Shown here: positions 11,430 to 13,342 of the stretch, piece after piece
How positions within the stretch are numbered: the stretch's first letter is position 1
Layout: every line of letters begins with the position of its first letter
Translations under genes and position numbers: made by a program
Source of the DNA: Candidatus Hadarchaeota archaeon
GTDB taxonomy: Archaea > CAYQAE01 > CAYVLA01
DNA: 64,000 nt
Direction of reading: 5' to 3'
Assembly (NCBI GenBank): GCA_964621445.1
Contig: CAZUNO010000001.1
Span: 136,496-200,495 of the forward strand
Notes under the pieces: generated by a model
Told to the model about the DNA's origin: nothing
The model's database searches: none
The model's input: only the letters and a program-made list of their open reading frames with translations

Positions 11430-11995
11430 GACCGTCGAGAGAGGAGGTTCTAGGTCTTCTGAGGAAAGTAGGAGTTCCACCGCAGGTGATATCACATAGT
11501 TTAAAGGTGGAGAATGTCGCTCTACGGATAGCGGAAAAAATATCCAATAGAGGGCATCAGGTAGATGCTGGCCTGGTGTCTCTTGGGTCTCTAATGCATG
11601 ATATAGGGAGGAGCGTTACTCACGATATGGGCCATGGAATTATGGGGGGGAAGATAATCAGGAAGCGTGATATCTTTGAATCCATATTGGACCCTAGCGA
11701 TAGGGAGAAATTGGCAAGGATTTGTGAGAGGCATATCGGAGCCGGGATAACTGAAAGGGAAGCTAGAAGGAATGGTCTACCGGATGGCGATTATGTTCCC
11801 CAGACCATGGAGGAGAAGATACTGGCCCATGCGGACAACCTTGTCTGGAATGGCATCCTGAGCATTGAGGAGAGCCGCGCTGCCTTCCGTAAGAAATTTG
11901 GGGAGGAAAGTCCAATAGTTAGACGTATAGAAAAGCTGGGTAATGAAATAACTAAGCTCATGAGGCAGGAAATTGAGGAAGATAACCATACTTGA
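11426..11995 (+). CDS. HD (HDIG) domain protein, TIGR00295-like
   Basis: HS...LMHDIGR...HG...ERHIGAG...EEKILAHADNL; typical neighbour of tfe. Confidence 0.88.
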   Translation: MRPSREEVLGLLRKVGVPPQVISHSLKVENVALRIAEKISNRGHQVDAGLVSLGSLMHDIGRSVTHDMGHGIMGGKIIRKRDIFESILDPSDREKLARICERHIGAGITEREARRNGLPDGDYVPQTMEEKILAHADNLVWNGILSIEESRAAFRKKFGEESPIVRRIEKLGNEITKLMRQEIEEDNHT

Positions 11996-12704
11996 AAAGA
12001 TCTACCGGAATAGACGGGTGGCCGAGAAAGCCCTTCGAGCCATGCTTAAGAAGGCCTTGAAGATTGAGGTGGAGATAGGTTCGTTTACCAGGACGCAACG
12101 AAATTGGGTTACGGTTGCCCTGAGGGGTAAGGATGAAGTAATTGCACAGAGATATCTGGAAAACCTTTGGGGTAGGGTTTGTGATATAGGGGAATTGGAG
12201 GAGAACCAGCTAAGAAGGGGTAAGATAGTCGATCTGGGAAAGGTTGGCTATGGTATATACGTGGATATCGGGGTGGTAAACGTGGAAGGGGAGCCCATAG
12301 ATGCCCTTATTCCCGTACACAGACTGAGAAAGCAACTAGGAGTGAAGGGGAACTTGTCGGTTAATCAGATTGCAAAGTACCTTGGTTTGATGGATAACTT
12401 ACCTCTGGGTATAAGAATCACGGGTATCAACATGATGAATGGAGAGATCGAGGGAAAGCTCACCAACTCTCAGGCACGCGAGATAGGGCGGGGAAAACAT
12501 CGATTTTATGTTTGCGGTGAGACGAGAAGAAAGATTAAAAACGCGATTGATAGAACCGGGAATTCCGGCAATATAGTGAGGATTAGGAGACTGGGACTTC
12601 TGGAGAATGAGGTCCAATGCCCCAAACAGGTGGACCCTCACGATATCATCCGCGACATAGGTCCGGTGGTCAACGCCGATATGGCCGTGTGTAGGGGCCT
12701 GTAG
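11973..12704 (+). CDS. DUF2110 family protein
   Basis: GKVGYGIYVDIG, DALIP and RLGLLE motifs; conserved tfe neighbourhood. Confidence 0.85.
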   Translation: MRKITILEKIYRNRRVAEKALRAMLKKALKIEVEIGSFTRTQRNWVTVALRGKDEVIAQRYLENLWGRVCDIGELEENQLRRGKIVDLGKVGYGIYVDIGVVNVEGEPIDALIPVHRLRKQLGVKGNLSVNQIAKYLGLMDNLPLGIRITGINMMNGEIEGKLTNSQAREIGRGKHRFYVCGETRRKIKNAIDRTGNSGNIVRIRRLGLLENEVQCPKQVDPHDIIRDIGPVVNADMAVCRGL

Positions 12705-12784
12705 TGTAGCCTGGATTGGGTCCTCGCCAGACAGCACAGCACCCTGCGGAGGTGCATACCCGGGTTCAAATCCCGGCAGGCCCA
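12695..12784 (+). tRNA. tRNA-Arg(GCG) with a 16-nt non-canonical intron (12717-12732) in the D-loop at position 20a/21
   Basis: Acceptor stem GGGCCTG/CAGGCCC plus A73; anticodon arm GCACC-CTGCGGA-GGTGC; T arm CCGGG-TTCAAAT-CCCGG. Removing TGGGTCCTCGCCAGAC restores the D arm GTGT-AGCCTGGATA-GCAC with A20 and gives a 74-nt tRNA. CCA is not encoded. Confidence 0.9.
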
Positions 12785-12883
12785 CTTAACTACCTCAATC
12801 ATTCAACGGGATCGATGCCGCGATCAGGCAAGATTTCTAAATATCTCAATTGTTTAGCCTTTCGGAGGAGGCCTGAAGATCAT

Positions 12884-13342
12884 TTGCCTAAGAAATCCGA
12901 AGACCGGTCCATACTAAACGCCTTGGTACGCAATCCCCTCATAAGAATCTCGAATTACTTCATTACCCCACAGTTCCCTGGAGGCGGCATTACAACTGGA
13001 CAAGCCAGAGCTACCGTTTTATTCCTTACCATTACCTGTGGTTTTTTCCTTGTCGTAGGTTGGTTGAGGCTGGAAATTGCGGGTGTTCTTGTCACGCTAT
13101 TAATCGTTGGCTATTGGGGAACTTTTGGACGCATGGAACTGCAGCGACGGGAGGAAAGCAGGAGAGAGGATCCACTGGATGTCAAGTTCAAGGGTGAGAT
13201 AGTGGATTGGAGGGAACTTCCTGAGAGCGAGCAGGCCAAACGTCTTGTTGTCGGGGGAATTACTGTAAGTTCTATTTTGGTGGCCGGTGTCTATATACTG
13301 ATCATGGTTCTAAATTCCCTTGGCTCATCAGGAGGGGTTTAG
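12884..13342 (+). CDS. Hypothetical membrane protein (about 3 TM)
   Basis: Three hydrophobic segments. The start is inferred at TTG 12884 after GGAGGAGG and an AT-rich box at about 12836-12845; the ORF-track start lies inside the tRNA. Confidence 0.55.
   Translation: MPKKSEDRSILNALVRNPLIRISNYFITPQFPGGGITTGQARATVLFLTITCGFFLVVGWLRLEIAGVLVTLLIVGYWGTFGRMELQRREESRREDPLDVKFKGEIVDWRELPESEQAKRLVVGGITVSSILVAGVYILIMVLNSLGSSGGV

Follow-up and report, generated by a model that had tools for sequence, protein, structure and literature searches.

We analysed a window of 64,000 nucleotides (positions 136,496 to 200,495 of the forward strand of contig CAZUNO010000001.1, assembly GCA_964621445.1, Candidatus Hadarchaeota archaeon) and found in it a gene for transfer RNA (tRNA)-Arg(GCG) that carries a 16-nt insert in its D-loop. 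We put at roughly 85% the probability that this is a functional tRNA gene interrupted at site 20a/21 (Sprinzl numbering) by an archaeal protein-spliced intron. The source assembly, denoted G000, comprises 3.21 Mb in 89 contigs and is 96% complete with 4.2% contamination. The Rfam tRNA model RF00005 matched exactly positions 12695-12784 of the window on the plus strand (55.9 bits where the cut-off is 29; model positions 1-71), and its alignment placed 23 letters at a D-loop site where the consensus has 4. According to the same alignment, the 5' exon (12695-12716, +) holds the acceptor 5' strand, U8 and A9, the D-stem 5' strand and the D-loop up to ...GGAU (Sprinzl 1-20a). It is followed by the putative intron, TGGGTCCTCGCCAGAC (12717-12732, +), delimited by an excision test and by an alignment of six variants of the gene, and by the 3' exon (12733-12784, +), which contains A21, the D-stem 3' strand, the anticodon arm, a 4-nt variable loop, the T-arm, the acceptor 3' strand and the discriminator A, the CCA being unencoded. 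The letters and coordinates of the gene are those given by an earlier reading of the window (the first-pass annotation).

With the insert, the D-loop is 26 nt long; without 12717-12732, the gene is 74 nt long and folds into stems of 7, 4, 5 and 5 pairs, all 21 of which are intact, and thereby reaches the maximum (33) of a custom cloverleaf scorer. The acceptor stem is GGGCCUG/CAGGCCC, the D-stem GUGU/GCAC, the anticodon loop CUGCGGA and the T-arm CCGGG-UUCAAAU-CCCGG, and none of the conserved letters (U8, A14, GG, U33 and those of the T-loop) is lost. The anticodon, GCG (12746-12748, +), reads CGU and CGC. In E. coli and yeast, the elements by which arginyl-tRNA synthetase identifies tRNA-Arg are C35 and G36 of the anticodon and A20 of the D-loop. 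These letters are present here, in the anticodon GCG and in a spliced D-loop reading ...GGAU-A with A at position 20, which bears out the earlier claim that excision of the insert yields an intact 74-nt tRNA with A20. The three other Arg tRNAs of the source genome likewise have GGAT after G19.

In the precursor (pre-tRNA, with positions numbered from 12695) the insert and its flanks can form a splicing motif, all of it on the plus strand. Its core is a central 4-bp helix, present in the minimum free energy (MFE) and centroid folds and in the RNAalifold consensus, in which the exon letters C17, U17a, G18 and G19 (CTGG, 12711-12714) pair with the intron letters CCAG (12727-12730). On one side of this helix lies the 3' splice-site bulge A C^A (12731-12733), the final letter of which is exon A21 and which is 3 nt long in five of the six variants in the conserved register, followed by an outer GC/GC pair (12709-12710 with 12734-12735). 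On the other side lies the 5' splice-site bulge A U^U (12715-12717), which the consensus fold shortens to 2 nt (A U), the cut then falling at its 3' edge, ahead of an intron inner helix (h') with a 4-nt loop (12717-12726; pre-tRNA positions 23-25 with 30-32) whose pairs in this genome are U.G, G-C and G.U. If the 5' bulge is instead taken as 3 nt, positions 24 and 32 face each other as a G.G mismatch. The first-pass annotation had chosen this second reading and named the motif bulge-helix-loop (BHL). Its insert, outer pair, CTGG/CCAG helix and AT^T and AC^A bulges stand as it described them, but the G.G mismatch and the BHL label belong to one of two readings, and RNAalifold prefers the 2-nt 5' bulge with the 3-bp inner helix. 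In the modelled fold, the motif is a relaxed bulge-helix-bulge (BHB), which is a better name for it than a pure BHL. The top cloverleaf score is reached by 21 different excisions, among which only the one after positions 22 and 38 also has four of four central-helix pairs and a 2-bp flanking helix. The MFE and centroid folds of the precursor both contain the helix 17-20/33-36, but the precursor folds only slightly better than shuffled letters do (z -1.87; 9 of 200 shuffles fold equally well).

The supporting evidence came from the comparison with relatives. In the genome set used, the phylum consists of five species genomes, of which four (G000 and its relatives G001, G002 and G003) belong to one family and the fifth (G004) to another; the submitters' label for two of the family relatives is 'Candidatus Hadarchaeota'. 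Each of the three family relatives has one full-length match to the 90-nt gene, with 87-89% identity. A pattern anchored on the exons recovered seven further loci from metagenomes, three of which share one new insert variant and one of which has a second, the remaining three being equal to G001 or G002. The resulting six variants (G000-G003 and the metagenome loci L111 and L117) are few and related sequences. Across them 71 of the 74 exon columns are invariant, as opposed to none of the 16 insert columns, and the length of the insert varies from 12 to 16 nt; the 5' exon is identical in all six but for column 17, which is C or T. In the T-stem, G003 has U-A at pair 66:82 where the other five variants have C-G, and such a compensatory change points to selection acting on the tRNA. 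Of the 24 cells of the central helix, 22 are paired; three variants have C-G as the first pair, two have U.G and one has U-A. When run unguided on the six variants, RNAalifold recovered the cloverleaf, the central helix and the inner helix. The inner helix shows changes on both strands: at 24:31 three variants have C-G and two have G-C, and at 25:30 three have C-G, one has G.U and one has A-U. The consensus fold consists of a 2-bp outer helix, a 3-nt 3' bulge, the 4-bp central helix, a 2-nt 5' bulge (pre-tRNA positions 21-22, A U) and the 3-bp inner helix, and in G001 the motif is a strict 3-4-3 BHB with 2-bp flanks. Overall, the prediction of an intron is supported by fixed exons, a free insert and kept helices.

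Several points weigh against this prediction. When the 16 insert letters were shuffled, 330 of 2000 shuffles yielded an equally good motif at some cloverleaf-compatible site; we therefore rejected the motif alone as statistical support, and the evidence for an intron comes from the comparison among relatives. The outer 2-bp helix requires two D-stem pairs to open; in the MFE fold a 3x3 internal loop takes up the 3' splice site instead. The central helix has its whole 5' strand in the exon, so that half of it lacks the freedom to vary, and the covariation is weak (42 of 500 shuffles reach the observed value), as expected for six related rows and a helix of this kind. With only 37 tRNA genes found in the source genome, heavily disrupted ones may have been missed. 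Splicing is deduced from DNA, the seven sequencing runs listed for it including none on record as RNA. Lastly, G002 and G003 each have one mismatch in the central helix, and a 3-bp register with the cuts one letter earlier fits both.

This last point gives rise to the first alternative, namely that the insert is an intron cut one letter earlier at each end, after A20 and two letters before A21, with a 3-bp central helix and a D-loop ending GGA-A(A). In this register G002 and G003 fit free of mismatches, with bulges of 3/3 and 3/4 and flanks of 2-3 bp, so that sequence alone leaves the exact junction ambiguous. Against this, the 4-bp register is perfect in G000, G001, L111 and L117, and no other register yields one and the same spliced D-loop across the six variants. 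That D-loop is moreover identical to the one found in the other family, where the tRNA-Arg(GCG) gene of G004 (L027:1501-1589, minus strand; G004:C40:15631-15719) has no D-loop insert and its uninterrupted 10-nt D-loop, AGCTTGGATA, equals the product predicted by a GGAT|A junction. We therefore regard the earlier cuts as unlikely. The G004 gene itself has an anticodon loop lengthened by about 15 nt, and the intron site of tRNA-Arg(GCG) therefore differs between the two families.

A second alternative is that the insert is no intron at all and is retained, leaving a mature tRNA with an enlarged D-loop of 26 nt. That the single-sequence motif does not exceed chance is compatible with this, and a preprint on Asgard tRNA genes cautions that D-arm insertions without a canonical motif may in some cases be something other than introns (bioRxiv 10.64898/2026.10.13.758758). 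However, the insert is free in both sequence and length where the exons are fixed, its kept pairing to G18 and G19 would, in a mature tRNA, block the contact between D-loop and T-loop, the same tRNA has a normal 10-nt D-loop in G004, and the genome encodes splicing endonucleases (EndA) with residues known for broad specificity. Taken together, these points make retention quite improbable, and the intron remains the preferred explanation.

The need of the genome for this gene was addressed by a search for a substitute. We found no second locus for tRNA-Arg(GCG) or tRNA-Arg(ACG) in the source genome among the 37 RF00005 matches, by BLAST with the gene and with its 3' exon, or by a regular-expression scan for an anticodon arm of either kind with a T-arm behind it; this includes the intact tRNA-Arg(GCG) elsewhere which, according to the first-pass annotation, would have marked the present gene as a pseudo-tRNA. 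The gene is thus, as far as these searches of a 96%-complete genome go, the only decoder found for CGU and CGC, codons which make up 4588 of 433,500 codons in 738 open reading frames of at least 400 amino acids. A decaying pseudo-tRNA, with a working tRNA-Arg(GCG) in unassembled or undetected DNA, is allowed for by the incompleteness and the 89 contigs of the assembly and by the several anticodons missing from the 37 matches, but is very hard to reconcile with the invariant exons, the compensatory T-stem change, a locus that is syntenic in four genomes, the single full-length match in each family relative and the failure of the scan to find in G000 another anticodon arm with GCG or ACG ahead of a T-arm. 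The DNA of the interrupted gene was found again in contigs from sequencing runs, all of them DNA, none of which joins across the insert. Within the same study, a contig from a second sample matches 12617-12913 with zero differences, and a contig from another study covers 12500-12785 with five differences, one of which is G>A at 12720 within the insert and none of which is in the covered exon letters. The change at 12720, a strain variant, falls on position 26 of the precursor, within the inner-helix loop.

The first-pass annotation had predicted that this genome should encode a broad-specificity endonuclease and had pointed to the EndA subunit architecture as a check. Pfam domains of EndA are present at two loci of the source genome, and both of the encoded enzymes appear from their sequences to be of this kind: one is a three-unit alphaN-alpha-betaC chain of the epsilon2 type, and the other a two-repeat chain, with a beta-like and an alpha half, that has a crenarchaeal-type lysine. 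The epsilon2-type EndA (G000:C9:28563-29768; L009:1501-2706) has 402 amino acids and, in a single frame, the Pfam domain order N, N, C, partial C. Its alignment with the enzyme of Candidatus Micrarchaeum acidiphilum ARMAN-2 (archaeal Richmond Mine acidophilic nanoorganism; 4fz2_A) runs from end to end, pairing residues 20-402 with 13-387, at E 2.6e-74. In ARMAN-2 EndA the catalytic triad is Y236, H251 and K282, and K161 lies in the specificity loop (PMC6379350). The residues aligned to these, Y250, H263, K294 and K167, are invariant in an alignment of five epsilon2 sequences (A1). The second, two-repeat EndA is about 347 amino acids long (G000:C2:82887-84050), and over the whole chain it can be aligned with enzymes of the two-repeat type, for example 3p1y_A. 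The C-terminal, catalytic half is nearest to crenarchaeal alpha subunits, the closest being that of Aeropyrum pernix (3p1z_B, E 3.4e-43), and keeps the Tyr, His and Lys, and a further Lys of the chain aligns to A. pernix K44, in the Crenarchaea-specific loop; its N-terminal half matches structural beta subunits weakly. The ligase RtcB is also encoded (609 bits). Both EndA genes occur in all three family relatives as well, and contamination is therefore unlikely. In G004, there is a single EndA match, of the alpha type, in a frame of about 190 amino acids, and a crude parse made without an Infernal check placed D-arm inserts in 5-6 of 20 long tRNAs. Epsilon2 is therefore no precondition for D-arm inserts in this phylum, and we rejected its arrival as the cause of D-arm introns there.

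The analysis establishes the gene with its insert, the conservation pattern, the fold and the presence of the enzyme genes; cleavage and ligation, the positions of the cuts and the identity of the acting enzyme are predictions, which run as follows. In the precursor, C17, U17a, G18 and G19 would pair with the CCAG near the 3' end of the intron and so form the 4-bp central helix of a relaxed BHB, with a bulge of 2-3 nt (A U / U) ahead of the short inner helix on the 5' side and a 3-nt bulge (A C / A) on the 3' side ahead of a 2-bp outer helix that would compete with the D-stem. A broad-specificity EndA, which may be the epsilon2-type or the two-repeat enzyme, would cut after U20a and before A21, and RtcB would ligate the tRNA halves. 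Splicing would then free G18 and G19 for the contact between D-loop and T-loop.

The interruption has consequences for annotation. Of the two tRNA finders that were tried on this gene, ARAGORN and Infernal, ARAGORN in its default mode reported no tRNA in the 64-kb window, and with introns allowed it called tRNA-Arg(gcg) but drew a 15-nt intron at the wrong site. The warning in the first-pass annotation that standard scans may miss or miscall the gene was thus justified, and the decoder of CGU and CGC is invisible in one setting and misdrawn in the other. Nor is the gene alone in this genome. A region-level parse found at least one insert in 25 of the 37 tRNA genes matched by RF00005, and by Infernal alignment the D-loop is interrupted in Val(CAC), Glu(CTC), Lys(CTT) and Glu(TTC) too, which makes five with Arg(GCG); these counts come from the region-level parse and Infernal, since a BHB-guided intron catalogue mis-solved several class II and multi-intron genes, set its anticodon-loop position labels off by 5 and was left unused. 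In tRNA-Glu(TTC) (L121:21-128; G000:C10:20779-20886) a D-loop insert is combined with an anticodon-loop insert. Many long tRNA matches were also seen in the three family relatives. Asp, Asn, His, Gln and Cys tRNAs, among others, are not apparent among the 37 matches, from which about 10 anticodons are missing, and probably more heavily disrupted or split tRNA genes are still hidden in the genome. Given the hidden or misdrawn tRNA-Arg(GCG), the at least four more D-loop inserts and the roughly 10 missing anticodons, any codon-usage statement or tRNA-based estimate of completeness for this lineage therefore needs intron-aware curation.

Further side observations concern the same tRNA set. Two class II tRNAs (L122:21-105, G000:C45:5941-6025; L123:21-104, G000:C15:2241-2324) have a long variable arm, a discriminator G and a Ser-like body, and Infernal assigned both of them an anticodon loop UUGAAAA with the Phe anticodon GAA. 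A normal class I tRNA-Phe(GAA) is also present in the genome, and tRNA-Ser(GCU) is not among the 37 matches. Neither of the two class II genes has a match in G001-G004 at E 1e-6, and the one on contig C45 adjoins a gene for a GATase1_like surface protein, with an rve integrase fragment about 1 kb away. Finally, several T-arm-like BLAST matches lie outside the 37, for example at C17:17229-17248, C61:6481-6500, C46:6006-6025 and C82:27-50.

Immediately upstream of tRNA-Arg(GCG) lies a gene (11973-12704, plus strand) with the N, central and C domains of Pfam DUF2110, whose stop codon TAG (12702-12704) falls on tRNA positions 8-10, so that the two genes overlap by 10 nt. The alignment of the DUF2110 protein extends into the start of the tRNA in G001 and G003 as well, and the order HD-domain gene, DUF2110 gene, tRNA-Arg(GCG) is also found in G001, G002 and G003. 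By eye, no AT-rich promoter box common to the four orthologues was seen in the 70 nt upstream of the tRNA. The lack of such a common box suggests that the DUF2110 gene and the tRNA gene are co-transcribed.

Since the presence of an epsilon2-type enzyme bears on where this type occurs, we also surveyed its distribution in one genome per species. With a single epsilon2 protein as the query, the contig scan returned no relative; with alignment A1 as the query, relatives were recovered, in at least 594 stretches, at least 574 of which were confirmed by tblastn, and the best 80 loci were kept, the patterns used also fitting other EndA types. By the submitters' labels, these best 80 loci include two from a 'Candidatus Hadarchaeota archaeon' (62% and 68% identity), which are the family's own relatives, and ten from Aenigmatarchaeota (39-44% identity), most of the others being from Micrarchaeota. 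Among 36 genomes listed under 'same domain', two small ones have a full-length epsilon2 match, one match each. In a tree of 81 of 82 sequences (one 324-amino-acid partial sequence was left out), the three rows of the family form a clade with a Shimodaira-Hasegawa-like approximate likelihood ratio test (SH-aLRT) value of 100 and a stem of length 1.05, and this clade groups with the ten Aenigmatarchaeota rows in a set of 14 (SH-aLRT 95). This tree has a midpoint root only, and no direction of transfer is therefore readable from it.

In a literature search that was incomplete and did without supplements, no paper was found that places epsilon2 outside Micrarchaeota or DPANN (Diapherotrites, Parvarchaeota, Aenigmarchaeota, Nanoarchaeota and Nanohaloarchaeota) or beside a second EndA. 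Kaneta et al. (2018, PMC5829648) state that the origin of epsilon2 'remains elusive' and that the type is known only from ARMAN-type archaea; a published account lists it in ARMAN-1, ARMAN-2 and Mancarchaeum only and describes a Hadesarchaea genome with an alpha4 enzyme, an extra loop and many disrupted tRNAs. Judged from its sequence, the enzyme found here is of the epsilon2 type, and it is encoded by a 3.2-Mb genome whose phylum comprises five species and carries no DPANN label; in the papers found, the type is described only in ultrasmall archaea. More tentatively, and as a reading that we consider less likely than not, the family could be the first lineage in which two broad-specificity EndAs stand side by side, a resident two-repeat enzyme and an epsilon2 enzyme nearest, among the best 80 loci, to those of Aenigmatarchaeota, in which case epsilon2 would be no speciality of DPANN. 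The occurrence of epsilon2 in large genomes of another phylum, beside a second EndA, provides material for tracing the origin of the type, and two EndAs in one genome open the question whether substrates are divided between them.

Comparison with known systems places these findings as follows. A close precedent is pre-tRNA-Glu(UUC) of Methanopyrus kandleri, which has a D-loop intron at 20b/21 in a relaxed HBh' motif (Kaneta et al. 2018, PMC5829648). The gene described here shares with it a short intron directly 5' of A21, a relaxed BHB motif and a host outside the TACK group (Thaumarchaeota, Aigarchaeota, Crenarchaeota and Korarchaeota), and the tRNA-Glu(TTC) of the source genome resembles it in combining a D-loop insert with an anticodon-loop insert. 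Unlike in M. kandleri, the tRNA is Arg(GCG) and the relaxed element is formed by the 5' bulge and the inner helix. The enzymes differ as well: that of M. kandleri is an (alpha-beta)2 type that has no specificity loop and cuts its intron poorly, whereas the source genome has two enzymes with specificity lysines. In Aeropyrum pernix, EndA alone removes the D-loop intron of pre-tRNA-Thr2(UGU), for which K44 is needed (Hirata et al. 2011, PMC3241643). The D-loop intron is common to both systems, and the two-repeat EndA found here is closest to A. pernix alpha and has a Lys at the K44 site; A. pernix, however, has a canonical BHB and separate (alpha-beta)2 subunits, in contrast to the relaxed motif and the beta-like and alpha halves joined in one chain.

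The epsilon2 enzyme is known to cut strict as well as relaxed motifs (Fujishima et al. 2011, PMC3239211), and in ARMAN-2 a relaxed hBH/BHL intron occurs at 59/60 of pre-tRNA-Cys (PMC3239211; Kaneta et al. 2018). Compared with ARMAN-2 EndA (4FZ2), the epsilon2-type enzyme of the source genome is built of the same three units along the full chain and keeps both the catalytic triad and the lysine of the specificity loop (ASL), and interrupted tRNAs are frequent in both organisms (25 of 37 here versus 56% reported for ARMAN-2). Unlike in ARMAN-2, the host is a 3.2-Mb genome and not that of an ultrasmall DPANN cell, and its epsilon2 is about 40% identical to Micrarchaeota-type sequences. The host also encodes a second EndA, whereas each of the two epsilon2-bearing genomes among the 36 sampled showed a single match. 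In Asgard archaea, D-arm intervening sequences, often with non-canonical motifs, are missed by tRNAscan-SE (bioRxiv 10.64898/2026.10.13.758758), and the present gene is like these in having a D-arm insert that standard annotation overlooks or misplaces; the lineage is another one, and the EndA set of the source genome differs from the (alpha-beta)2-type enzymes of Asgard. Overall, the D-loop intron is of an already known kind, and the enzyme pair and the lineage are the more unusual part.

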